Positions 12 through 54,224 of a stretch of 64,000 nucleotides of DNA are shown piece after piece. A program made the position numbers and the translations under genes. The notes below the pieces were generated by a model that was not told the DNA's origin, did no database searches, and saw only the letters and a list, made by a program, of their open reading frames with translations. The first letter of the stretch is position 1. Each line of letters starts with the position of its first letter. Location of the stretch: sequence record NC_027349.1; one strand, given 5' to 3'. Origin of the DNA: Escherichia phage HY01.

Positions 12-2189
12 TTAGGCCGCAAGGGCCTTCATAGTTTTAGCGATTTGGGAAACTTCATCATCACTTAAAGAGTTGCGATAACCGATGAAGTCGGAAACAA
101 TACGGAATTTCTTGGTAAACTCAACGACCATTTTATCACTGTTTTTTGAAGCATTATTTGACAATACATCAAAAAGATTAGTTACTGTCCAGATATCATG
201 ACCGATGGTACCTTTTCCACCGTTGAAATATATACCCTGCAATGAACTAACCATATTACCAAGGCGAGTATATTCTTCAGAAACTTCATCTACACTGAAG
301 TACTTCATCATAAAATCGAGTTCAGGATACTTGATAATTTTATCAATATATCGTTTAGCTGAACTTGAATAACCTACATACTTATCATAATCTACATCAT
401 CAAAAGCATCTACATATAAATCACGCAGAGTTTCAAAAATACATTGGCACTGACCGAGTTCTTTTACCTTTTTCTGTAAAAGCGGACGAATAACATAAAA
501 TTCATTAATGCCAATAAGATTAGCCATACGAATCAAAATATTCATAGATGGATGACAAAGCGATGTAGTACCATCCATAGAGAAAATATCAGAACGATGC
601 ATGTATGCTACATAACCAGTAATTTCATCTGCTTCTGATGTGAGCGTAAATAGTTCCTCTTTTTCCCAGCGCCCGTCTTTAATTTCAAACTTAAATGCAG
701 TAGCAGCTTTAGGACGAGGAGCTGTACTTTTTACTGCCTTTGGAATATAACTTTTAACTAAAGCTTCAATTTCTGACAAATAATGAATGTTAACTTCATC
801 ACTTTCAAACATCGCCATAATATCAGGGAGTAAATCAATCTGCGATTCTACTTCTGGATTAATAAACAGAAGACGCTCGTTGTGATGAATATTTAAAGTG
901 TTATTAAATTCACTATCATCTAACGCATGTGCTAATCCACGAACAATATTAACACGATTTTTAATATCATCAATAACGATATTAATTTTTGTTGTATTAA
1001 TACCAAACAGACGATAACTTGATGCGACGGCTGAAGTTTCATGACTTTGCTTAATGCGTTTCAGTCGAGGGTCAAGATTTACTTCATACACAACCCCTGC
1101 ATTGCATAACTTACTATCAGGTTCAAACATGCTCTGCATCTTTTTATATGACAGATTTTTAGTCGTGAATTTGACTGAATTACTAATCATATAATCTCGA
1201 GCAGAATACCCCATCTTCATCAATTCACGATATGTGTGACGAGGAGATGTAGATTCTTTAAATCGTTTTACATCTTCATTGAATGCCTTCTCACTAAGCT
1301 CTTTAACACGCTCAATAATATTTTTACGAGTACGATCATCTAGTGAAAGAGCCTCACGCGATGGAGCAATATCAAGTGAACCCATTGGAAACTTAATATA
1401 ATTCACTTCATTGCGGATGCTTAGCCAGTTACGGTCTCTAATAACACCATCAATAGGATAAACAATACCACCATAGATAGCATATAATCCACCACGATCT
1501 GGCCAGTATCTTTCTGGATTTACGCCGTAATAATCATCAAAATCCGGAAAATAATCAATTTCGCGGTCAAGACCATTAATGATAGCCAAATCTTTGAATG
1601 GTCGCATGATATAAGAAACTTCATAAGCAAAGTTTCTAAAGTCTTTTTCTTCAACTGGAACTACGATTTCAATACCAGTTTTATCATCTGGACCCATTTC
1701 TTTTACGAATGTAGGTTTAATTTGTGGACCATCGCCATCCATGTAAGCTACATAACCACGAATTTCGCCTTTATGATATGAAGTAATACTAAATGTATCA
1801 GTATAACTAAACGGAGATTTAGAACCTAAACCAAATCCACCAATGAAATCGTTAGATTCAGCCTTAGATGAACTAAAGTATGAATTATACAACCCAGGAG
1901 AATTATCATCACCCTGAATATCAAAATCGCTCATACCCGGACCAAAATCTCGACAAACAAATCGCGGATCTAATCGTCCTGGAACTTGAATGATAAATTT
2001 TTCAGGATTTCCATTGAGAGCATGGGCATCAATCATGTTGGTAATCAATTCACGAACCACTGCGCGAATCTTGTTTGTATACAAATCAGATGACAGAATT
2101 TTAAATACTTTAGGAGACGCTGTGATGCTAAATGCTTTTGATTTAGAACCATTACCAAGAATAGTTTCTTTTTCAGTGGTGATAATCAT
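12..2189 (-). CDS. rIIA: rIIA protein (rapid-lysis / exclusion locus, membrane-associated ATPase-like)
   Basis: 725-aa ORF; size, position at the window start and sequence match T4 rIIA as recalled. Confidence 0.93.
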
Positions 2190-2428: not shown

Positions 2429-2458
2429 ATTATACCACATCCTTGTGGTAAAGTAAAC
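2429..2458 (-). promoter_or_regulatory. early promoter (-35 GTTTAC, -10 TATAAT) for rIIA.1-rIIA
   Basis: minus-strand sense GTTTAC-18 nt-TATAAT with upstream A/T tract. Confidence 0.6.
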
Positions 2459-2990
2459 TACTGGCTCATCCATTCTTTACGAAGGTCAGCGTTATCTCCC
2501 ATGAGCATTTCAAAAAGCTCTTTCCAATTCTCAGGAAGTTTAACAACATCATATACTGGGTTTTGAATCATCTCACGATATTCAGATTTTTCCAAAGAAC
2601 CAAGTCCTTTAATATAACGGATGCTATGTTTAGGTAGAGCATCTTTGGCACTCTCATATTCAGCGACTGTATAAAACCATTCTTGTTTTTTGCCGACCTG
2701 AGCGATGATTACAGGAGTTTTGACAAAACGAATTCGTCCTTGCTCAAACAATTCTGGCCAATTACTAAAAAATCCGAGCAGAGAAGGATAAATAGAACCT
2801 AATCCAATAATCTCTTAATTATGAGGTATTTCAATGGATAGCCCGAAGGCTATCCATCGTGATCTGCGTCTGTCATAATAGCGACATTCGCATAGTTCAT
2901 TGAAGAGGATTTAATAGAACGACGGACATTGTTCTGCGATTTATATTTTTTCATATCAATGCTAGAAGAATCAATTTTTACAAATTTCAT
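2458..2990 (-). CDS. 60: DNA topoisomerase II subunit gp60, decoded as join(2853..2990, 2458..2802) across a 50-nt untranslated gap
   Basis: N-terminal segment MKFVKIDSSSIDMKKYK...MTDADHDG ends at GGA-TAG; translation resumes LGSIYPSLLGFFSNWPELFEQGRIRF... after the landing GGA; 46 codons precede the gap as in T4. Confidence 0.9.
2803..2852 (-). other. 50-nt translational bypass element of gene 60 (take-off GGA, stop TAG, UUCG-loop hairpin, landing GGA)
   Basis: mRNA sense GGA UAG CCUUCGGGCUA...UUAUUGGA UUA; the stop codon sits in the stem of hairpin AUGGAUAGCCUUCGGGCUAUCCAU. Confidence 0.88.
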
Positions 2991-3789
2991 TATACACCTC
3001 GTAGAACTTTTCATCAGGAATCCAGCCGCGTTTAAATTCATTAAATGCTCGGCCGAATAATTTTGAATTCACAGTTATATTATTAACTGATTTCCATTTA
3101 GCAACTCCCGTTCGTTTATAATGATCGGGGTCATATTTCGTGACGTACCATTCATATAAATTTGGTATTAATTTTACAGCCTCTGGATTTGTCGCTGATT
3201 TATTATACCATGGTTTCGCTTTTTCAAGTTCAGCTGCTTTTGCAGTAGCAGCAACAGTATTTCCAATACCAACTAATTTTTCAGCTTTAATGCGTGGATC
3301 ATTAACATGAAGACGAAAAACTTCGCCTTTTTCATTTTTAAAGCATGTCATGCCTTTAATTCCAGGAAGCTTAACACCTTTATTAACACCGCACCATTCC
3401 TTTGGGTTAAATGATCCTTTAATTAATAAGGCGCATTTACCCGATTTAATACTTCTCATTAAAACTTTATCTTTCATAAAGTTTTTTGACCATTCAGATA
3501 CTGCTCTTTGATGGTAAATTCTAGCAATTTCATATAATTTACTAGAACGTAAATATTTTTCAGTGTTTAACATTCTATTCATCGCATATGCCATTTCACG
3601 ATTACGATGAATTTTATATAGTAGAAAATGTGCTAAAAAGTGTTCACGAAAAGTCAGTTTCACCAAATTTTCTTTATCATCAGAACCTCCCATTGATCTT
3701 GGAAGGATATGGTGAATTTCACCCTTAAATTTAGAAACGCGGGTTTTACCCCGCACTATTAAGTCATCATAGATTTTTTCGTAATTCAC
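2971..3789 (-). mobile_element. mobA: HNH-family homing endonuclease ORF between topoisomerase genes 39 and 60
   Basis: 272-aa ORF with HNH-like motif HHILPRSMGGSDDKENLVKLTFREHFLAHF; overlaps the 3' end of gene 39 and the 5' end of gene 60; true start uncertain. Confidence 0.7.
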
Positions 3790-5320
3790 CTACTGTTATC
3801 CATTTACCATTAATCTGTACTTCATCATTTTCATTTACAATAATTGTATCACCATTTAGTTCGAGAGTAAACCACTCACCGTCTTCTTTTTCTTCAAACG
3901 CTTTTTCACCAAGAACCAATCCAGTGATTGCGCAAATATCAAATAGTTCTTTGTTTTTAAGCATATCAGCATATGACATACCCCAACTGTTGAGAACTTT
4001 ACCACGCAATGGATAACCACCGTGAAGTTCTTTATCACGAACATCAATAAGATAGCCGATAGCAGAATCACCCTCAGTCAAGAAAAGAGTAGTATCAGCA
4101 TCTTTACCGCAAAGATTCGCTTTAATATGTTTATGAACCTTAGCTTTAGAAGCCTTTTTAGCTGCTTTAGTTTCTGCTGCTTTTTCTGCCGCCAATTTAC
4201 GAGCCAAGGCAGCTTCAATAATTGGCATTAAAATTGCTTCATTATTTAAAATAGCGCGTGAAATCTTTTTAGCATCAAGCTGAATATGACTACGAATTTC
4301 ACCAAATGGAGAAGTCAAACGCTCTTTAGTTTGAGAATCAAATCGCATGTTTTTCATATCACGAACAAACATAACGATAGTCAAACATTCTTTAACCCGT
4401 GCTTTAGTTACATCAATTTTGAATTTACGTTTGATTTGCGGAATAAGGTCTTCACAAATATCATCCATAACACAGTCAATATGATGGCCACCATTCTTAG
4501 TATGAATGTTATTGACGTATGTTAATTGACGAAAACCATCCGGTGAACGACCAACCGCAATAGAGCAATTTTCCTGTTCTTGAACGATAGCATGCTCATC
4601 ATATTGGCGTGCGTATTTCTTAAAATTACCCTGAACCTTTTTACCATTAAAGGTAAATTGAATATCAGGATAAACTACTGCAAGTGTCTGGAGACGATCT
4701 AGTGTAATGTCAAGATAAACTTGGGACAGCTCATTAGTTTCAAATGACATAAAATCAGGAATGAAAGTAACACGAGTTCCTTTCCATTTTCCAGGAATAG
4801 TTTCCCATGATTTATTTTCCATGCCATTTGAACAACGAACTACAATATTATTTTGACCGTCGCCAGTTTCACCGACAAACATCACAGAAAAAATGTTTGT
4901 CAAACTAGAACCAACACCATTCATACCGCCGGTGACGCGTTCTTTATCATCACCGAAGTTACCACCTGCTTTTGGAATAGTCCACGCAGCAACAGGACCA
5001 GGAATTTCTTCGCCGGTAGGTGTTTTAACCATCGCTTGTGGAATACCGCGACCGTTATCTTCAACTGTTACTTGATTGTTTTTGATAGTAACATTAATTT
5101 TATTTGCGAATTTAAACTTAGTACGAATACCTTCATCTACTGAGTTATCGATAATTTCATCAATAAGCTTAACAAGACCAGGTACATACTGAACACTTTC
5201 CCATTTACCAAACAGAAAGCGCTCATGCATTTCATTAGCAGAAGAACCAATGTACATGCCGCTACGCTTTTTGATATGTTCAATATCGCTCAGAATTTTA
5301 ATTTCATTCTTAATCATCAC
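3767..5320 (-). CDS. 39: DNA topoisomerase II large subunit (GyrB-like ATPase)
   Basis: 517-aa ORF with GHKL ATPase motifs (IDNSVDE, DNGRGIP, GLHGVG-like). Confidence 0.93.
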   Translation of the reverse strand: MMIKNEIKILSDIEHIKKRSGMYIGSSANEMHERFLFGKWESVQYVPGLVKLIDEIIDNSVDEGIRTKFKFANKINVTIKNNQVTVEDNGRGIPQAMVKTPTGEEIPGPVAAWTIPKAGGNFGDDKERVTGGMNGVGSSLTNIFSVMFVGETGDGQNNIVVRCSNGMENKSWETIPGKWKGTRVTFIPDFMSFETNELSQVYLDITLDRLQTLAVVYPDIQFTFNGKKVQGNFKKYARQYDEHAIVQEQENCSIAVGRSPDGFRQLTYVNNIHTKNGGHHIDCVMDDICEDLIPQIKRKFKIDVTKARVKECLTIVMFVRDMKNMRFDSQTKERLTSPFGEIRSHIQLDAKKISRAILNNEAILMPIIEAALARKLAAEKAAETKAAKKASKAKVHKHIKANLCGKDADTTLFLTEGDSAIGYLIDVRDKELHGGYPLRGKVLNSWGMSYADMLKNKELFDICAITGLVLGEKAFEEKEDGEWFTLELNGDTIIVNENDEVQINGKWITVGELRKNL

Positions 5321-15418: not shown

Positions 15419-15655
15419 TTAACCACCTATTTGTGTAGGCGTAAACATTGCAGCATTCTTAGTTTTCCAATCAGCTGCATCAGAAACTACAGTAGAATAT
15501 GCTGCCTTTTCTGACGGAAAGATCTGATAATGAGAATCTGCGATACGGTGCTCGTTAGAATAAATTTCAAACGGAACAGAAACTTCCATACCTTTAACTT
15601 CTTTGCCTTCACCCGCTGGATGAGTAAAGGTCTTGATGTTAACGAAACCACCCAT
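15419..15655 (-). CDS. soc: small outer capsid protein Soc
   Basis: 78 aa with Soc family motifs (YVNIKTF ... YQxFPSEKAAYSTV); late promoter TATAAATA about 30 nt upstream; diverged from T4 Soc. Confidence 0.85.
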   Translation of the reverse strand: MGGFVNIKTFTHPAGEGKEVKGMEVSVPFEIYSNEHRIADSHYQIFPSEKAAYSTVVSDAADWKTKNAAMFTPTQIGG

Positions 15656-15683
15656 AATAAACTCCTTTATTGTTTAATTACAA

Positions 15684-15695
15684 GTGTATTTATAT
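15684..15695 (-). promoter_or_regulatory. late promoter (TATAAATA) for soc
   Basis: TATAAATA on the minus strand about 30 nt upstream of the soc start; coordinates approximate. Confidence 0.55.
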
Positions 15696-15868
15696 CAGTC
15701 TTCAATGAAAACTTGTGCCAGGAATTCGTGTTCATCTTGAATTTGTTTATATAAAGCCATTACAGCATTTATATTAGAGCTATCTACTTTAAGCTGATAA
15801 GCATACCACTCGTATAAATTAATTAAAGCTTTTTGTCGTCTAATAAATTCTTCTTTGGATATTTTCAT
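15695..15868 (-). CDS. hypothetical small protein
   Basis: 57-aa ORF translated by hand; ATGA overlap with the next ORF; coordinates approximate. Confidence 0.3.
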   Translation of the reverse strand: MKISKEEFIRRQKALINLYEWYAYQLKVDSSNINAVMALYKQIQDEHEFLAQVFIED

Positions 15869-16074
15869 TTTGAATGCTCTATAATTAATTTTAAGGCTTC
15901 TTCACTGACAAAAATTTCATCAGGACCTTCTTCTACAACCCAATCAACCCAATCAACCACACGAAGCTGATTAGATAAGAGCTCACATACGAGCTCCTTG
16001 TCATAATTTTTAAATAGCTGGTCAATACGTTTCTTGCGGGCTTTCTTAAGCTGACGTTTATTTAAACGAGCCAT
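15865..16074 (-). CDS. hypothetical small protein
   Basis: 69-aa basic ORF. Confidence 0.4.
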   Translation of the reverse strand: MARLNKRQLKKARKKRIDQLFKNYDKELVCELLSNQLRVVDWVDWVVEEGPDEIFVSEEALKLIIEHSK

Positions 16075-16592
16075 TAATAACCTCGGTCTTGACGAGCGAA
16101 GTTTTCAGCATTTTTCAGATAATAAAGTTTAAAGATTTCTTCAGCAGTAAGGCCGAGACCTTGGAACATGTTCAGAACGAAATGAAGAATATCAATCATT
16201 TCGAATTTAATTTCCAACTGGTCTTGAGGAGACAAATCAGTAATTAGAGTTTCACGGCGTTCACCATGCTGCGACTTCCAAGGCTTCCATACAGCAGATG
16301 CATCTTTTTCACCATTGCTCATACCACCAAGAGAAGTCAGAAGTTCGCGGAATTCATCATCAATGTAATCTTTCTGATTACGCAGCCAATCAACAACTTC
16401 GCCTGCAGTAGCCAAATCATCAGGATGACGGTTATATTCAGGTTTATCTTTAGCTAAACGAACCTGCAAAGATTTCTGCATATCAAGCATAACTTGCAGT
16501 GGGTCTTTTTCGTCACCGAGAATATCCCAGTATTCATTTTGAGCTTTATCAGCGCCTTCGATCAGTTGCGAGCATTCATTAAAGTAAGCCAT
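16074..16592 (-). CDS. 56: dCTPase/dUTPase (MazG-like NTP pyrophosphatase)
   Basis: MAYFNECSQLIEGADKAQNEYWDILGDEKDPLQVMLDMQ... matches T4 gp56; true start is the internal Met (ORF track extends upstream to 16685). Confidence 0.88.
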   Translation of the reverse strand: MAYFNECSQLIEGADKAQNEYWDILGDEKDPLQVMLDMQKSLQVRLAKDKPEYNRHPDDLATAGEVVDWLRNQKDYIDDEFRELLTSLGGMSNGEKDASAVWKPWKSQHGERRETLITDLSPQDQLEIKFEMIDILHFVLNMFQGLGLTAEEIFKLYYLKNAENFARQDRGY

Positions 16593-16626: not shown

Positions 16627-16652
16627 ATTATACAATAAATATATAAAGCAAT
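16627..16652 (-). promoter_or_regulatory. MotA-dependent middle promoter for gene 56
   Basis: minus-strand MotA box ATTGCTTTA followed 11 nt later by TATAAT. Confidence 0.55.
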
Positions 16653-22316: not shown

Positions 22317-23165
22317 TTAATCAACTGCTATTGGATGAATAGCATTAAACTTATGAAACGCTTCTGATTTTTCTTTGCGCGAAACACACATGCGAAGAAC
22401 CTTTAATGGCTCGTCTTCTTCACCTAATGATTTTCGTTTTTCAATATTAGAAGTTTTCCAACGAGCTTGCTCTGGAAACTCTCTATTGATTTGCTCAAGC
22501 GCTCTATTATGTTTAGAATTACTACGAATTGAACTACATCCACCGGGGGCTTGTGCTTTTCCAGATACAACTAGATATTTGAACAAGGCCAAATGTGGAT
22601 AACCTTGATTAATTAAATTGAGAAATGCATACATATCTTCGCATAAATCAATTTTTCCATACCCAATTTGTTCTGTTGTAAGTTTTCCGAGGTCATACCA
22701 GGTATTCGTGAATCCATACGAATTTTCACGATAATTACCCCAAGATGAAGTAATTTTAAAAATAGGTAGACGAGCATGACCATGATAATACCCGCAATCC
22801 ATTGCATCTTCCACGTATTGAATCAATTCATAGAACTGTTCACGGGTTAATTGATTAATTTTATCTACGCAGCGACGATCATCTTTCTTTCGCATTGAAC
22901 TCATACGAATAGTAGTATCATCATCAATCATCCAAATTCGTTGACCTGCATACATATCAGTAATCGCTTTACGAGTTCCAGCAATTCCATTTACATCGTC
23001 GGGAATAGTTATAATTTTAGCTCTAGACCCATAAGCATCATAATAAGCTTTTTCTTCGTGTTCACGTACTACAATATGTGGTTCATAATCAGATGGAAAC
23101 ATATCAAGGGCAGAAACTGCCCCTACGCGTTGATAGCTTGGAATTACAAATTGAATCATTTCCAC
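22317..23165 (-). CDS. putative DNA-modifying glycosyltransferase occupying the T4 beta-gt locus (not T4 beta-gt)
   Basis: 282-aa ORF MEMIQFVIPSYQRVGAV... between uvsX and 42; does not match T4 beta-glucosyltransferase (351 aa) as recalled. Confidence 0.45.
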   Translation of the reverse strand: MEMIQFVIPSYQRVGAVSALDMFPSDYEPHIVVREHEEKAYYDAYGSRAKIITIPDDVNGIAGTRKAITDMYAGQRIWMIDDDTTIRMSSMRKKDDRRCVDKINQLTREQFYELIQYVEDAMDCGYYHGHARLPIFKITSSWGNYRENSYGFTNTWYDLGKLTTEQIGYGKIDLCEDMYAFLNLINQGYPHLALFKYLVVSGKAQAPGGCSSIRSNSKHNRALEQINREFPEQARWKTSNIEKRKSLGEEDEPLKVLRMCVSRKEKSEAFHKFNAIHPIAVD

Positions 23166-31412: not shown

Positions 31413-31467
31413 GTTTTTCCTCCATAGAGATTATACTCTAATAAATTAAAGCATAATCTCTTATAAA

Positions 31468-34789: not shown

Positions 34790-35992
34790 TTATTTTGTAA
34801 TAATGTCAAACTGCTCTTTAAAGCAGAAGCTTGAATCTTGGTGCTGATACAAAAATTCATAAGCTTTTTCACGTTCACGGTCATAAAGAGCTCGGTCAGA
34901 TGACAGTTCTTTAATACGTTCAAATGTTGATTCCATGTCATTTTCATCAAACCAAACGATACCGCTATCATGTGAAATTAATGGAGTATTATCAACACGA
35001 AATTTTAAATTTTCGCCAGTAGATTTCCAAAATACTGGAATTGTTCCGCATGCACCAAGCTCGAGATGAGTGTATTCTAAAGAACGTTGTAGATATTTTT
35101 TATCTAATTTACTCAGCTGATAACCAAATCCGGATTTACTCATGCGTTCAAGCATTTCGCTATTTACATAACGATCGAGAATTTGCGTTGGCAAATTAGG
35201 AGCAATTTTAATTTGGTCTACTTGATGAAGACGATAATACTCGTATGGAATTCCTTTTTCTTTAATAGGAATGAATGCTGGAGAACGTTCCAGACCTTCC
35301 ATAATAGTACTTAGTCCTGCAGGTTTAAGATGTTTTTCGTGAAAATCAAACATCTGATAAAAGCCTTTCCATGTAGTAGTACGACCAATCCAACGGTTGA
35401 TATTCATGTTAATTTCAGAAACATCTTTCCAGTAAGTTGATCGAACCTTCGCAATATCCATAGGAGGCTGAAAGTTATATACAGTCGGTGCTTCTTCAAT
35501 ATCATCAAACAAAGAAACAGTTTCCGGATACCATTCTTTCATTAAAACTTTATTAAAATCACCATTATCAGAATGACTAAAAATAACATCAGCTCGACGA
35601 ACAGTTTCTTCTAATCCCAAATTTCGGCGCAAAGAAAGAGAAGAATGGTCATGTTGATAAACTACAACACGAACTGAAGGTTTAATGTTATCAATAATTT
35701 TTTTATAGTTATTAATAGTGTCTTCTTCGACTGAAGTAGCAGGAACTGAATTGATAATTAGAATATCACAATCATTTACCAGCTTAAGTGTTTTATCGTA
35801 TTCTTTTGCCAATAAAACCGGAATTGAAAATGATTTATAATCATGCGCGCAATTACGGGTAAATGATTTATCTTTAGCATAAACCAAAGTTACTTCATGA
35901 CCATTTTTAATAAACCAATCACGTTGCTCAAGAGAAAATTTAGTTACACCGCAACCTTCAAGACCTCGAGCCATAAAAATGCATACTTTCAT
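34790..35992 (-). CDS. a-gt: DNA alpha-glucosyltransferase
   Basis: 400 aa; near-identical to T4 alpha-gt as recalled (MxxCIFMARGLEGCGVTKFSLEQRDWF...). Confidence 0.9.
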   Translation of the reverse strand: MKVCIFMARGLEGCGVTKFSLEQRDWFIKNGHEVTLVYAKDKSFTRNCAHDYKSFSIPVLLAKEYDKTLKLVNDCDILIINSVPATSVEEDTINNYKKIIDNIKPSVRVVVYQHDHSSLSLRRNLGLEETVRRADVIFSHSDNGDFNKVLMKEWYPETVSLFDDIEEAPTVYNFQPPMDIAKVRSTYWKDVSEINMNINRWIGRTTTWKGFYQMFDFHEKHLKPAGLSTIMEGLERSPAFIPIKEKGIPYEYYRLHQVDQIKIAPNLPTQILDRYVNSEMLERMSKSGFGYQLSKLDKKYLQRSLEYTHLELGACGTIPVFWKSTGENLKFRVDNTPLISHDSGIVWFDENDMESTFERIKELSSDRALYDREREKAYEFLYQHQDSSFCFKEQFDIITK

Positions 35993-36016
35993 TTAATATC
36001 CTCATTGTTTTGGTTT

Positions 36017-36042
36017 ATTTTACCAAAAATTTATAAAGCAAT
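36017..36042 (-). promoter_or_regulatory. MotA-box middle promoter upstream of alpha-gt
   Basis: minus-strand ATTGCTTTA then TAAAAT about 11 nt downstream. Confidence 0.45.
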
Positions 36043-40034: not shown

Positions 40035-40505
40035 TTAATCATGTTTCCACACCCCATCGGTATTTGACCAAAGTCGCTGATTATCTGAACCTCGCCACAG
40101 CTTTTTGGTCGGAAGATTTTTCTCATACTTCCCATCAATAATAACATCAACATATTTAAGCATTTCTAGTTGTTTAATATCTTCAAACTTATATCCTGTC
40201 CACAACCAAATGCTTTTATTCGGATAAAGATTTTTTACCGTTTGAACAATGCAATGAACATCATCTCGGTTATCAGGATAAAGAGGGTCTCCTCCAGTTA
40301 TAGTTAATCCTTCTATATAATCATTATTCAAACATTCAATTAATTGTTCTAGTGTTTCACCAGTAAATGGAACGCCATTTCTAGCATTCCATGTTGATTT
40401 ATTATAACACCCTTCACATTTATGCAAACACCCCGTAACGAAAAGAACGACCCTGCATCCAGGGCCATTCACAAAATCACAGGGATAAAATCTATCGTAA
40501 TTCAT
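40035..40505 (-). CDS. nrdG: anaerobic ribonucleotide reductase activating protein (radical SAM)
   Basis: 156 aa with CxxxCxxC-type cluster (GCLHKCEGC). Confidence 0.88.
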   Translation of the reverse strand: MNYDRFYPCDFVNGPGCRVVLFVTGCLHKCEGCYNKSTWNARNGVPFTGETLEQLIECLNNDYIEGLTITGGDPLYPDNRDDVHCIVQTVKNLYPNKSIWLWTGYKFEDIKQLEMLKYVDVIIDGKYEKNLPTKKLWRGSDNQRLWSNTDGVWKHD

Positions 40506-42319
40506 TGGTGTTTAACCCTATGCATGATTTCTTTATTTTTGCCAAGATTAAATCCGCGTTCGTTCGGATTTCCCAAATAGCCACATGTTCTTCTTATTGT
40601 GTTCATCTTTTTAGGATCAGTTTCTCCACAAATAGAACAAACAAATCCGTTTTCAGTAGGAGTCATTTCATGGGTACTTCCACACGTAAAACATTTATCT
40701 ACTGGCATATTAACACCAAAATAATCTAAATGTTGTGCAGCATAATCCCATACAGCCTCAAGGCCTTTTAAGTTATTTTTCATATCAGGAAGTTCAACAT
40801 AAGAAATGTGACCACCTGTCGCAATGAAATGATACGGTGCTTCGCGAGAAATCTTTTCAAATGGAGTAATATTTTCTTCTACTGAAACGTGGAAACTGTT
40901 AGTGTACCAGCCTTTATCAGTAACATCTTTTACACTTCCATATTTTTCGGTATCAAGTTTACAGAAGCGATAGCACAGGTTTTCAGCAGGAGTAGAATAC
41001 AAACTAAAAGCAAATCCGGTTCTTTCTGTCCATTGTTTAAGATGAGTATTCATTTTAGTTAAAATTTCTTGCCCAATATCACGACCGACAAGAATATTCA
41101 ATTCGTGAATACCAATGTATCCTAGGGACACTGAACTTCTACCGTTTTTAAATAACTCAATTATATCGTCATCAGGTTTAAGACGAACCCCGAATGCACC
41201 TTCTTGGTAAAGAATAGGAGCAACAGTAGCTTTAACTCCTTTTAAGGAACTAATTCTACACATCAATGCTTCAAAACATAAATCCATTCGCTCATTGAAC
41301 AATTCGGCAAATTTCTGTTCATTGAACTGTGTTCCAATATAAGAATCTAGCGCAATGCGAGGAAGATTCAGTGTTACAACACCAAGATTATTACGTCCAT
41401 CAAGAATTTCATTACCAGTCGAATCTTTCCATACACTCAAGAAACTACGACAACCCATTGGAGAAACAGGAATAGATGAACCGGTGATAGCTTTATTGTT
41501 CTTAGCCGAAATGATGTCAGGATACATTCTTTTACTTGCACACTCTAGAGCAAGCTGCTTAATATCATAGTTCGGATCGTCTTTATAAAGATTAACACCT
41601 TCTTCAACGAACATAACAAGTTTAGGGAAAATAGGAGTTATCCCGTCACGACCAAGGCCTTTAATACGATTTTTCAGAATTGCTTTCTGAATCATTCGTT
41701 CAGTCCAGTCAGTTCCCGTACCAAATGTAATTGTTACAAAAGGCGTTTGTCCGTTTGAACTAAAGAGAGTATTTACTTCATATTCATAAGCTTGGAATGC
41801 ATCGTATACGTCTTTTTCTGTTTTAGATTGGGCATAATTCAACGCATCAGCGATTTGCCATTTTTCTGCATCCTCAATATGTTTTGCATAGGTGCGTTTA
41901 ACATAAGGAGAAAGTACTTTATCTACATTCGCAAAAGTCGTTCCACCGTATTGATGGGAAGCAACCTGTGCAGTAATTTGTGCCATAATTGCAGTAGCAA
42001 CGCCGATTGATTTAGGAGTTTCAATCTGTGCATTACCGAGCTTAAATCCGTTCTCAAGCATTCCTTTTAAATCTACTAAACAGCAATTAGTAAATGGAAG
42101 AGCAGGGGAATAATCAATATCATGGAAATGAATAATTCCGCTTTCATGCGCTTTCATAATAAAAGACGGGACCATATTTTTGGCAATGTGTTTAGACACA
42201 ATACCAGCCATAAGGTCCCGTTGAGTTGGAAAAACACGAGAATCTTTATTAGCATTCTCGTTTAAAAGGTCTTTATTAGTTTTATGAATCAATCCTTCAA
42301 TTTCTTTTTCAATTGTCAT
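40502..42319 (-). CDS. nrdD: anaerobic ribonucleoside-triphosphate reductase (glycyl radical enzyme), uninterrupted
   Basis: 605-aa contiguous ORF with C-terminal glycyl-radical motif RTCGYLG and Zn ribbon CFTCGS...CSICG. Confidence 0.93.
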   Translation of the reverse strand: MTIEKEIEGLIHKTNKDLLNENANKDSRVFPTQRDLMAGIVSKHIAKNMVPSFIMKAHESGIIHFHDIDYSPALPFTNCCLVDLKGMLENGFKLGNAQIETPKSIGVATAIMAQITAQVASHQYGGTTFANVDKVLSPYVKRTYAKHIEDAEKWQIADALNYAQSKTEKDVYDAFQAYEYEVNTLFSSNGQTPFVTITFGTGTDWTERMIQKAILKNRIKGLGRDGITPIFPKLVMFVEEGVNLYKDDPNYDIKQLALECASKRMYPDIISAKNNKAITGSSIPVSPMGCRSFLSVWKDSTGNEILDGRNNLGVVTLNLPRIALDSYIGTQFNEQKFAELFNERMDLCFEALMCRISSLKGVKATVAPILYQEGAFGVRLKPDDDIIELFKNGRSSVSLGYIGIHELNILVGRDIGQEILTKMNTHLKQWTERTGFAFSLYSTPAENLCYRFCKLDTEKYGSVKDVTDKGWYTNSFHVSVEENITPFEKISREAPYHFIATGGHISYVELPDMKNNLKGLEAVWDYAAQHLDYFGVNMPVDKCFTCGSTHEMTPTENGFVCSICGETDPKKMNTIRRTCGYLGNPNERGFNLGKNKEIMHRVKHQ

Positions 42320-51615: not shown

Positions 51616-52101
51616 TTATTCCATTTCTACTATATGCATGTTCTTTTTGCTATCAAAATATATGTTTTTAACTATTAACTCAGAATTAATTGGCAGTAAA
51701 AACTCTCTTTCATAATCTACCATACAAAGATTATCATAAAGCTTGTTAAGCTTATCATCGTCAGTTTGGCCAGATTCTTCAATTGCGATTAAATTTTCTA
51801 AAATGTCAATCATGGCAGTCGAATAGTCGAAAACGTTTGCATTTTTTAACACTACTAAAACATTAGTCATATAGCGTTCTGCCGCAAACGTTTCAGCTAT
51901 ATGAGACTCACTGCTAAAGGAAGTTATTCTTTTAAATTTGATTCTCCTATTAACTTCAAACTTATAAGATAGCACTTCCTCTATTGTAAGTCCTCTAAAA
52001 AGTATGTCTTTAATCTCAAGTTTGTCTTTAATGTAATCATTAACACGCTTATGATTAAAATCACTAATTTTGTTGCCAAGGCATTGCATTAAAATATGCA
52101 T
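51616..52101 (-). CDS. hypothetical protein
   Basis: 161-aa ORF followed by a GC hairpin terminator. Confidence 0.4.
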   Translation of the reverse strand: MHILMQCLGNKISDFNHKRVNDYIKDKLEIKDILFRGLTIEEVLSYKFEVNRRIKFKRITSFSSESHIAETFAAERYMTNVLVVLKNANVFDYSTAMIDILENLIAIEESGQTDDDKLNKLYDNLCMVDYEREFLLPINSELIVKNIYFDSKKNMHIVEME

Positions 52102-52228: not shown

Positions 52229-53242
52229 TCATTTATAATAACTTCGGTGGTTTTCAAGATAAACCCTCTCAAGGAAGTCATCCCAGAAACTCATGTCTAC
52301 TTTTTGCTGCATACCGTTCTTAGAAGCTTCAATGGATGCTGCTTCTACTTGATCGACCACATCTTCCAAAAACTCTTGAACAGTTTTAAATGGGTGTTTA
52401 CCCAGCTTCACGTCGAGAATAAATGGAGCGTCTTGAAGTGGATAAACCAAGTCACCAGTTTTGTAAATTTCCAATAGTTGGAGTCCACCACGACAAGCAT
52501 GACTTAGAGCTTTCCAGTCAATGCCCTCATTCGCTTCAGCCTTACGAGCACGTTCGCCATATTCAGCATCAAGTTTATTCAAAGACTGCTTAAGCTCAAT
52601 AAGAGAAAGTGTTGTCTGATATTTACGACCCAACACGGTATAGAACGTTTGCGGGCCTGTTTTCTCATGGTTATGGAATACCCATTCACAGAACTCGTTT
52701 TCAGGGAGTCTGTGTTTGATATCTTCTACCTTAGTACGACGAAGTCTATCAGGAATTCCTTCTTGATAGTCGACCCACTGGTCAGGGATTTGATTAACTA
52801 CTTTCAATACATCACGTAATGCGGCCAAACGAGAACCCTTGACACCGTATTTAGAAGCTTGCTTGCGGACATATCCTAAATAGGATTTCATGTTAGTTGT
52901 ATAAAACCGTGAACGATTGTCTTGGATAAATTTCCATACATCAGGCAAATCAGATTTAACCACTAGTTCAGGCGGAGTGTGAAGCATATCCAATGCTACA
53001 GTTTCACCATCTGCTGCTAATTTAAAGAAATACTTAAGACTGTACAGTTCATGGTCAATATCATCTTTGGTGTTTTTAGATGATGTGTTGTTAGTGTTTT
53101 TACTCATATGCTCTTTAACATTTCCGATAAGAATATCGCGAGCAGGAGGAACAAAGATTTCTTTAAAATCTACATCAGATTCTGGAGTAGAAGTTCCATA
53201 AAGATGACTACCAAAATAGCTTTTCATTACTGTTTTCATCAT
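52229..53242 (-). CDS. Pol-beta-superfamily nucleotidyltransferase-like protein
   Basis: 337 aa; N-terminal G-S-x10-D-x-D motif (GSHLYGTSTPESDVDF) with a downstream acidic residue cluster and helical C-terminal region. Confidence 0.5.
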   Translation of the reverse strand: MMKTVMKSYFGSHLYGTSTPESDVDFKEIFVPPARDILIGNVKEHMSKNTNNTSSKNTKDDIDHELYSLKYFFKLAADGETVALDMLHTPPELVVKSDLPDVWKFIQDNRSRFYTTNMKSYLGYVRKQASKYGVKGSRLAALRDVLKVVNQIPDQWVDYQEGIPDRLRRTKVEDIKHRLPENEFCEWVFHNHEKTGPQTFYTVLGRKYQTTLSLIELKQSLNKLDAEYGERARKAEANEGIDWKALSHACRGGLQLLEIYKTGDLVYPLQDAPFILDVKLGKHPFKTVQEFLEDVVDQVEAASIEASKNGMQQKVDMSFWDDFLERVYLENHRSYYK

Positions 53243-53700
53243 TCAGCCTTATATTCAATAACAGGACATACTTTAGCTTTACGCGCTTTTAAAAATTCGA
53301 CGATAATAGATTTCTTGGGTTGAATAGGAGGTAAACCTTTATACGCCCTATCAATATTTTCTACATGTAAAGCATAATCCTTTTTCCATTTATAATCTTT
53401 ATATTTTTCATGCAATTGTGCAGGAATAACAAATGAACCGATAATAAGTAAAACAAGCAAAATGGCAAGTATAAATGCTGCTGGAATAAGAGTCCATAAA
53501 CTACCAAAAATAAGCCATTTCTGTATGATTTCTGCACAGATGATAGTTAGACCTGCGAGTATAGTACATCCGAAAAAAGAAACGAAAAATGTAGGAATAA
53601 CAATAGACCAAAAATACGCGCATAGTGTCTTAGGTCGTTTCCATTCATCATTAAACATTTTGAATAATTTATAGTGCCAAGAGCTTTCATTAATAATCAT
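53239..53700 (-). CDS. integral membrane protein (2-3 TM helices) with basic cytoplasmic tail
   Basis: 153 aa; ATGA overlap with the downstream nucleotidyltransferase gene. Confidence 0.45.
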   Translation of the reverse strand: MIINESSWHYKLFKMFNDEWKRPKTLCAYFWSIVIPTFFVSFFGCTILAGLTIICAEIIQKWLIFGSLWTLIPAAFILAILLVLLIIGSFVIPAQLHEKYKDYKWKKDYALHVENIDRAYKGLPPIQPKKSIIVEFLKARKAKVCPVIEYKAE

Positions 53701-53702
53701 AA

Positions 53703-54224
53703 TTATCCTTTCATTGAAGGTGTAACAGTTGTTAAATACTTAATCATAGCTTCAGCTTCTGATTTTGATAATGAAATTTCTCCATTGTTTTGACGAATAG
53801 AAATAAAATCCGGATGACGGTCACCACCAGCTTTCAAAACACACATATAAGTATCAGTTTCATCTTCAATATTTGAAATGATTGAAGCAGTTCCACATGA
53901 ATGTGGTTTTTGATAAATCAATACGGCTTTTCTTCCACCGTTTGACTGTTCATAAACTTTTAACACATCAAACAAATCAATTCTTTTATCAATAGCTAAG
54001 ATGTTGTTTTCATCTTCAATGTTAAATCCTTCGGATACTTCATAAAGTGTCACCCATAAATCACCGATGTCAATAACAACATTTACTTTTCCATGACTTT
54101 CAAGAGCATTACAAATTTTCTTGATTTCGTCATAACTCATTTTAATAATATCATCTCCTTGAATAAGGAAGATGTCATTTTTAAATTCAACACGAATTAA
54201 ACCACTTCCACTTGAAATAAACAT
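53703..54224 (-). CDS. hypothetical protein, paralogue of the 54231-54788 product
   Basis: 173 aa; C-terminus SKSEAEAMIKYLTTVTPSMKG resembles TKDEAIALKTYLDSVIPTMISK. Confidence 0.4.
   Translation of the reverse strand: MFISSGSGLIRVEFKNDIFLIQGDDIIKMSYDEIKKICNALESHGKVNVVIDIGDLWVTLYEVSEGFNIEDENNILAIDKRIDLFDVLKVYEQSNGGRKAVLIYQKPHSCGTASIISNIEDETDTYMCVLKAGGDRHPDFISIRQNNGEISLSKSEAEAMIKYLTTVTPSMKG

Follow-up and report, generated by a model that had tools for sequence, protein, structure and literature searches.

In the 64,000 nucleotides (nt) of DNA from Escherichia phage HY01 analyzed here (sequence record NC_027349.1; the whole stretch is referred to as the window), the minus-strand element at positions 2803..2852 is almost certainly a programmed translational bypass of the T4 gene 60 type, housed in an intact MobA element that divides the large-subunit gene of topoisomerase II into genes 39 and 60. 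For the window itself we observed the anatomy of such an element, its homology to the T4 counterpart, the colinearity of the joined protein with an unsplit relative, selection on the downstream reading frame and conservation of the take-off hairpin. Work on the gene 60 hop, the textbook example of programmed translational bypassing, goes back to 1988 (Huang et al. 1988; Weiss et al. 1990), and its mechanism in T4 is described in PMC5462505, PMC6551183 and PMC11194080. Phage HY01 is the worked example for clade 1 of the MobA elements of Manning & Atkins (bioRxiv 10.1101/2022.08.31.505936). An initial annotation had placed a ribosome hopping element at 2803-2852 and left out the strand; its coordinates hold, and the strand is the minus strand.

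Gene 60 starts at an ATG (2990..2988) with a GAGG ribosome-binding site upstream. Its first 46 codons close with the take-off codon GGA (2855..2853), after which comes UAG (2852..2850), and the frame resumes 50 nt further on after a second GGA (2805..2803), the landing codon. The initial annotation had read the gene in the same way, and sequence and translations agree with it. Take-off and landing codons form the matched pair GGA/GGA, which is used by all clade 1 members (bioRxiv 10.1101/2022.08.31.505936). The gap length of 50 nt shifts the downstream frame by +2, and stop codons occur in all three gap frames. The parts of the element are as follows:

2853..2990, minus strand: gene 60 segment 1 (codons 1-46, MKFVKIDSSSIDMKKYKSQNNVRRSIKSSSMNYANVAIMTDADHDG), an N-terminal extension contributed by the element (from translation)
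2803..2852, minus strand: 50-nt coding gap, from the UAG (2850..2852) through the landing GGA (2803..2805) (from the sequence and the T4 and T4T annotation)
2812..2814, minus strand: Shine-Dalgarno-like GAG, 6 nt (AUUAUU) 5' of the landing codon in an A/U-rich context (from the sequence)
2458..2802, minus strand: gene 60 segment 2, with resume codon UUA (2800..2802), 114 codons (LGSIYPSLLGFF...) and stop at 2458..2460 (from translation)
2904..2954, minus strand: codons 13-29, the nascent-peptide bypass signal (MKKYK-SQNNVRRSIKSSS; L18 in T4) (from translation)
2832..2859, minus strand: take-off stem-loop of 28 nt, with 12 contiguous pairs and a UUCG tetraloop (from folding)
2865..2892, minus strand: 5' stem-loop of 5+4 base pairs (bp), ending 9 nt before the take-off codon (predicted fold; sequence identical to T4)
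2732..2793, minus strand: candidate equivalent of the T4 'forward slippage barrier' stem-loop (minimum free energy fold of the first 80 nt of segment 2)

A role of the GAG-type mini Shine-Dalgarno sequence in landing has been described, and the family is defined by a GAG, GGG, GGA or AGG located 5-7 nt 5' of the landing codon (bioRxiv 10.1101/2022.08.31.505936).

The same element is annotated in T4. Both the T4 (NC_000866) and the T4T (HM137666) records carry a misc_feature at 2803..2852, 'non-coding translational bypass region in mRNA', and the T4T layout matches the window base for base, with gene 60 as a join of 2458..2802 and 2853..2990, mobA at 2971..3789 and gene 39 at 3767..5317. Alignment of the 50-nt gap with T4 gave 48 matching bases out of 50 and no indels. 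The shared coordinates and this gap match indicate that the element is a homologue of the T4 element and not a chance resemblance. Window and T4 also share the GGA/UAG/GGA codons, the CC-UUCG-GG hairpin tip, the GAG 6 nt before the landing site, the 5' stem-loop and about 75 nt of post-landing sequence. With these hallmarks at the coordinates of the annotated bypass region, the initial description as the classic hopping element proved correct. The sequence is not identical to that of T4, a difference absent from the initial annotation: over 571 nt there are 13 substitutions and no indels. The 20-mer GGATAGCCTTCGGGCTATCC from the hairpin core occurs once in the 64-kb window even when up to 3 mismatches are allowed, with 0.00 occurrences expected by chance. 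On a larger scale the window and T4T are colinear over 64 kb with 91-98% identity, and their accessory genes differ. Around the bypass site, a stretch of 701 nt shows 100% identity to phage PEC04; its identity to T4, where it has the same coordinates, is 98.1%. PEC04 belongs to the species Tequatrovirus hy01 and is 100.0% identical to the window over the window's first 25 kb.

The interrupted frame could also be a sequencing or assembly artefact, or the 50 nt could be removed from the RNA as an intron to give a continuous open reading frame (ORF) in the mRNA. Splicing was the original hypothesis for T4 gene 60 and was later excluded; the 50 nt are said to have been found by Huang et al. in 1988 to persist in the T4 gene 60 mRNA. 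An error or an intron is difficult to reconcile with the identical 701-nt locus in the independent PEC04 record and with the presence of the gap in 40 T4-like records. Furthermore, no Rfam family, group I and group II introns included, reached threshold anywhere in the window, which rules out a recognizable intron; for the gene 60 bypass element itself no Rfam family exists. We consider both explanations exceedingly improbable.

The sequences on the two sides of the gap encode one protein. Joined by the bypass they give a gp60 of 160 amino acids (aa), and in a blastp comparison this protein aligned with residues 472-605 of the product of the unsplit '60plus39' topoisomerase gene of RB14 without a gap over the junction, G46 corresponding to G491 and L47 to L492. 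The initial annotation's statement that the two segments make up a complete subunit is supported by this alignment. Residues 27-46 of segment 1 align with RB14 residues 472-491, whereas segment 2 represents the C-terminal region of the parental topoisomerase large subunit and is identical to RB14 residues 492-605 at 114 of 114 positions. The junction (slash) lies inside the Toprim motif IMTDADHDG/LGS, in the context ...DADHDG/LGSIYPS..., and the insertion point, after D490/G491 in RB14 numbering, is a fixed family position in the topoisomerase II large-subunit gene. The joined protein matches TOPRIM_C of Pfam (6.1e-8) and the topoisomerase II families of PHROG, the latter over its full length. 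Compared with 12 relatives, segment 2 shows 2-52 nt differences, and in 10 of the 12 (2-13 differences) none of these changes an amino acid. Such strong purifying selection indicates that segment 2 is translated in the post-gap frame.

Translation of both segments could in principle be obtained with two polypeptides, by termination at the UAG to give a 46-aa peptide and independent initiation downstream. Automatic annotations of PEC04, HY03, LH2 and other phages contain a separate downstream coding sequence (CDS) of this kind, starting from a TTG at window position 2751 (97 aa) or from a later ATG, and about half of the ribosomes on the T4 gene fail to bypass and give the 46-aa product (bioRxiv 10.1101/2022.08.31.505936). 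The downstream frame itself argues otherwise. Following a UAA, it begins just 4 codons before the landing GGA, and segment 2 has no ATG, GTG or TTG before codon 18, the first canonical start being the TTG 17 codons in, so that independent initiation could not make the conserved N-terminal part. A product started at the TTG would be without LGSIYPSLLGFFSNWPE, which is 100% conserved with RB14 and changes only silently, and the DxDxD-G part of the Toprim motif would be cut off from its continuation. The junction is, moreover, exactly colinear with the unsplit RB14 protein, and in T4 the sole bypass product seen in vivo by mass spectrometry lands at this GGA (bioRxiv 10.1101/2022.08.31.505936). 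We regard two separate polypeptides as highly improbable and retain programmed bypassing as the explanation for the gap.

The peptide encoded by segment 1 carries the signal expected of a bypass element. In T4 this nascent-peptide signal has been defined as KKYK-LQNNVRRSIKSSS, residues 13-29 (bioRxiv 10.1101/2024.12.09.627546), with KKYK as its most important part (PMC5009743), and cryo-EM has located ribosome contacts at K5, I6, Y16, R24, S28, Y33, M39, T40 and H44 (PMC5462505). In the window gp60, KKYK and all of these contact residues are present, and the conserved Q19 and V22 are kept as well. Residue 18, which is absent from the lists of conserved and contact residues, is Ser in the window and Ala in S16.

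The initial annotation had located the stop codon inside a UUCG-tetraloop hairpin, and folding confirmed this. Both the GGA and the UAG sit in the 5' arm of the take-off hairpin, which has a CC-UUCG-GG tip. The 29-nt hairpin has a predicted stability of −17.9 kcal/mol (z = −5.4), and none of 200 shuffled sequences was as stable; for a 61-nt context the value was −23.0 kcal/mol (z = −5.9). Pairing in the stem was compared over six distinct natural variants (window, T4, G50, S16, PM2 and Thanatos-1), which is a small sample. Over this set 97.2% of the cells were paired, against 18-42% when the 3' partners were slid, and the only unpaired cells were those of a G/A mismatch in T4 and G50. Where the third base of the take-off codon pairs, the clades have A-U, U-A or G-C, which is covariation at one pair. 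This conservation of the stem agrees with the published survey. The 5' stem-loop upstream of the take-off hairpin is described in published surveys as a feature of clade 1 only. The sequence from the landing site to 2729 (about 75 nt) is identical to T4 and includes the predicted stem at 2732..2793; the sequence-specificity of the forward slippage barrier has been doubted in the literature.

By the T4 mechanism, codons 1-46 would be translated first, and the nascent peptide (KKYK..., Y16, R24, S28, Y33, M39, T40, H44) would grip the exit tunnel and slow the ribosome. Once GGA occupied the P site and UAG the A site, the CC-UUCG-GG tip of the hairpin would form in the A site and block release factor 1. 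Peptidyl-tRNA(Gly) would then leave the GGA and remain within the ribosome, while refolding of the 5' stem-loop behind the ribosome and EF-G would push the mRNA forward. Resumption at UUA in the +2 frame would yield the 160-aa gp60. At the DNA level, the 50-nt insert may shield the phage's own topoisomerase gene from nicking by MobA.

The mobile element that carries the bypass occupies the region upstream of gene 60 and comprises the following features:

2971..3789, minus strand: mobA, an intact free-standing HNH-type homing endonuclease of 272 aa (ORF; T4T coordinates)
3767..5317, minus strand: gene 39, which encodes the first part (ORF1, 516 aa) of the split topoisomerase II large subunit (ORF; T4T coordinates)
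3770..3898, minus strand: gp39 residues 474-516, an element-derived C-terminal extension of 43 aa (no RB14 counterpart)

The gene 39 ORF also has a GTG at 5320, one codon upstream of the ATG used in T4T. Residues 1-473 of gp39 are parental and 99.8% identical to residues 1-473 of RB14 60plus39 (blastp), after which the similarity ends; the Pfam matches of gp39 are HATPase_c and DNA_gyraseB. The mobA gene shares 23 nt with gene 39 and 20 nt with gene 60; published ranges are 269-279 aa for MobA, 1-20 nt for the overlap with gene 39 and 8-32 nt for that with gene 60 (bioRxiv 10.1101/2022.08.31.505936). The window MobA matches PHROG 655 'homing endonuclease' at 1.4e-57, and its score for the Pfam HNH family falls just under the cut-off (20.1 vs 21.4 bits). 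With 272 codons, only two residues different from T4T MobA (N8D and T169A) and the published layout, the gene bears out the initial suggestion that the cassette with mobA is intact. The clade 1 element of Manning & Atkins has the same layout as the window, namely a gp39 extension of about 43 aa, an overlapping 272-aa HNH endonuclease, and a 46-aa N-terminal extension of which the last 16 aa or so are homologous to the deleted parental stretch, followed by the 50-nt cassette. No structural difference was found between the window and the published element. For the T4/T2 pair, Bonocora et al. 2011 reportedly described nicking of cassette-free topoisomerase genes by MobA and protection of the phage's own DNA by the 50-nt insert. 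By analogy, the insert in the window would protect the HY01 topoisomerase gene from MobA.

In the T4 reference record mobA is broken. Between 3351 and 3767 of NC_000866, corresponding to 3430..3650 of the window, mobA contains 11 additional single nucleotides over a stretch of about 220 nt, and because of them the gene falls apart into '60.1' and a short fragment labelled 'mobA'. T4T is annotated with an intact 272-aa mobA at the coordinates of the window, which implies that it is without the 11 extra nucleotides. The clustered one-nucleotide insertions look more like an old sequencing error than natural decay. The published survey treats mobA of laboratory T4 as a pseudogene.

The differences from T4 in the element itself concern the peptide and the lower part of the take-off stem. 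Segment 1 has two amino acid substitutions, V11I (codon 2958..2960) and L18S (codon 2937..2939), and one silent change, so the peptides are identical at 44 of 46 residues. At gap position 17 (2836) the change from U to C converts a G.U pair to G-C, and at gap position 20 (2833) the change from A to U converts a G/A mismatch to G.U and removes the second in-frame UAG of T4. The window stem consequently has 12 contiguous pairs compared to 10 in T4, and the 61-nt context folds at −23.0 vs −17.5 kcal/mol.

Several points weigh against a functional bypass of the T4 type in HY01. The L18S substitution lies inside the peptide signal, beside KKYK, so that the sequence is not simply that of T4, and the lower take-off stem is longer and stronger through the two gap substitutions, which also abolish the second in-frame UAG. 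Bypassing by the ribosomes of the HY01 host is something we infer from the near-identity to T4. In addition, sigma-70 consensus sites were less frequent in the window than in shuffled sequence, with none of them immediately upstream of gene 60, and the MotA-box pattern did not occur at 2990-3900 on the minus strand, i.e. upstream of gene 60 and mobA; the gene 60 promoter was not located.

The same sequence differences would be expected if the window held a decaying or weakened copy, in which L18S, the 12-bp stem and the loss of the second UAG largely disable bypass and the topoisomerase is non-functional or dispensable. L18S falls within the defined peptide signal (bioRxiv 10.1101/2024.12.09.627546), the lower stem gains about 3-5 kcal/mol in stability over that of T4, and the published survey describes stepwise loss of MobA elements in other lineages. 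The clear purifying selection on segment 2 and gene 39 is not what such decay would leave, and mobA is intact, in contrast to the T4 reference record. Furthermore, the same variants recur in independent isolates (window, PEC04, pSe_SNUABM_01, JEP6, HY03 and ELT1), in mixed combinations, as the haplotypes of peptide residues 11 and 18 and gap positions 17 and 20 show:

Peptide I11/S18: window, PEC04, pSe_SNUABM_01, JEP6, HY03
Peptide V11/L18: T4, ELT1, G50, LH2, 215Ecol030PP, GRNsp7, CJY920
Gap C17/U20: window, PEC04, pSe_SNUABM_01, JEP6, ELT1
Gap C17/A20: G50, LH2, 215Ecol030PP
Gap U17/A20: T4, HY03, GRNsp7, CJY920

Thus I11/S18 occurs with C17/U20 or U17/A20, and V11/L18 with C17/U20, C17/A20 or U17/A20, which argues that the peptide and gap variants are interchangeable and tolerated. 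The S16 and Proteus clades have the same CAUUG in the lower stem as the window, and residue 18 is Ala in the S16 clade; the window is therefore nearer to the cross-clade pattern, and T4 is the outlier. In view of this, a decaying copy is very unlikely, and we hold to an intact T4-type bypass cassette. It is possible, though we put it forward only tentatively and think it the less probable outcome, that bypass efficiency, temperature dependence or landing fidelity of the window haplotype (12-bp stem, no second in-frame UAG, Ser18) differs from laboratory T4.

One relative differs in gap length. Salmonella phage GRNsp7 (ON720975, about 546..596, equivalent to window 2803..2852) has a 51-nt gap, longer by one T located between GAG and landing codon (AAGAGATTTATTGGA), giving a spacer of 7 nt instead of 6. 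Its segment 2 is intact and has no amino acid differences from the window. Two readings apply to the 51-nt gap, a homopolymer sequencing error or natural variation in length, which would be tolerable because landing is set by codon-anticodon pairing and not by gap length.

To place the element among phages, its occurrence was compared with that of the gene it interrupts. The element-specific part (N-terminal extension and gap) was found in 52 of 50,697 phage records, 40 of them T4-like at ≥97% identity and 12 from the S16, Proteus and Shewanella clades, while the surrounding topoisomerase sequence matched 497 records. This sporadic distribution is the product expected of a homing element and matches the published account (bioRxiv 10.1101/2022.08.31.505936). 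An exact-pattern scan of IMG/VR for GGATAGCCTTCGGGCTATCNATNGAAATACC gave no match, and a protein-guided scan of the same database found 64 loci, all with uninterrupted topoisomerase (residues 27-160 in one piece) and none with a cassette. Matches that seemed to enter the N-terminal extension (residues 12-158; loci L174 and L180) were rejected as ordinary fused type IIA topoisomerases of 1073 aa. The 14-mer hairpin core TAGCCTTCGGGCTA occurred in at least 120 IMG/VR contigs, for which tblastn with the gp60 segments gave no gene 60 context, and was set aside as a generic UUCG hairpin.

The cassettes of S16/Gelderlandvirus, of Proteus phages PM2 and Pm5461 and of Shewanella phage Thanatos-1 have the insertion point of the window and a UAG after the take-off codon. 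Those of S16 and Proteus also share the CC-UUCG-GG tip and the CAUUG lower stem, whereas the tip is CC-UUAG-GG in Thanatos-1. They differ in the codon pairs (GGU/GGC, GGG/GGA and GGU/GGU, with compensating changes in the 3' arm) and in gap length, and the DNA identity is only about 70-80%. The mitochondrial 'byp' elements of Magnusiomyces capitatus are skipped in a similar way, as non-coding inserts of 27-55 nt with matched or near-matched codons and a slow A-site codon. They are unrelated in sequence, numerous per genome, seemingly independent of mRNA context and nascent peptide, and read by mitochondrial ribosomes; 'byp' elements and the gene 60 cassette are not the same family.

Elsewhere the window differs from T4T mainly in accessory genes. 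It is without dam, mobB, mobC and the nrdD group I intron with its endonuclease, and segF appears to be absent; the corresponding sites are at about 16633-16652, 35984-36007, 40485-40505 and 41781-41784 and at 15601-16110. The absence of the nrdD intron is consistent with the zero Rfam matches in the whole window. The mobA/bypass element has therefore persisted in a genome from which most other T4 homing-endonuclease genes of the region are missing. On the minus strand, an ORF of 282 aa at 22317..23165 matches PHROG 842 'beta-glucosyl-HMC-alpha-glucosyltransferase' (3.5e-89) and replaces T4 segA and beta-glucosyltransferase (1.9 kb), while alpha-gt is kept, which suggests that the DNA glucosylation pattern may be T2/T6-like rather than T4-like. 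A 161-aa ORF not present in T4T is similar to the C-terminal portion of a PHROG that carries the annotation RNA polymerase ADP-ribosylase (2.1e-23), and in place of T4 mobD the window has two ORFs, one for a predicted membrane protein (phrog_944) and one for a protein of unknown function (phrog_1502); the coordinates of these three ORFs are 51616..52101, 53239..53700 and 53703..54224, all on the minus strand. The T4 middle-promoter-like MotA-box pattern (TGCTTNA, 11-13 nt, TANNNT) occurs 18 times in the window vs 4.7 expected, mostly on the minus (coding) strand, for example at 16627..16650, 31428..31453 and 36017..36040, each on the minus strand.

In GenBank, gene 60 is mostly mis-annotated in cassette-bearing phages (PEC04, HY03, pSe_SNUABM_01, JEP6, ELT1, G50, LH2, 215Ecol030PP, GRNsp7, S16 and others). 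It appears as two unrelated CDSs (the 46-codon ORF and an ORF from an internal TTG or ATG), as one of these alone, as a 'hypothetical protein' or with a 'frameshift' note, and none of these relatives' records contains a joined CDS with bypass. The proper annotation of gene 60 in T4-like records is a joined CDS with bypass.

The HY01 element is a member of an already described family. Since its lineage, Tequatrovirus hy01, is already in the catalogue of MobA/bypass cassettes, occurrence in this T4 relative adds no new biology. The natural variants do have a use: those in the lower stem and at residue 18 could serve as test sequences for mechanism studies and, together with the 51-nt gap of GRNsp7, they form an allelic series for probing the lower stem and the residue beside KKYK.

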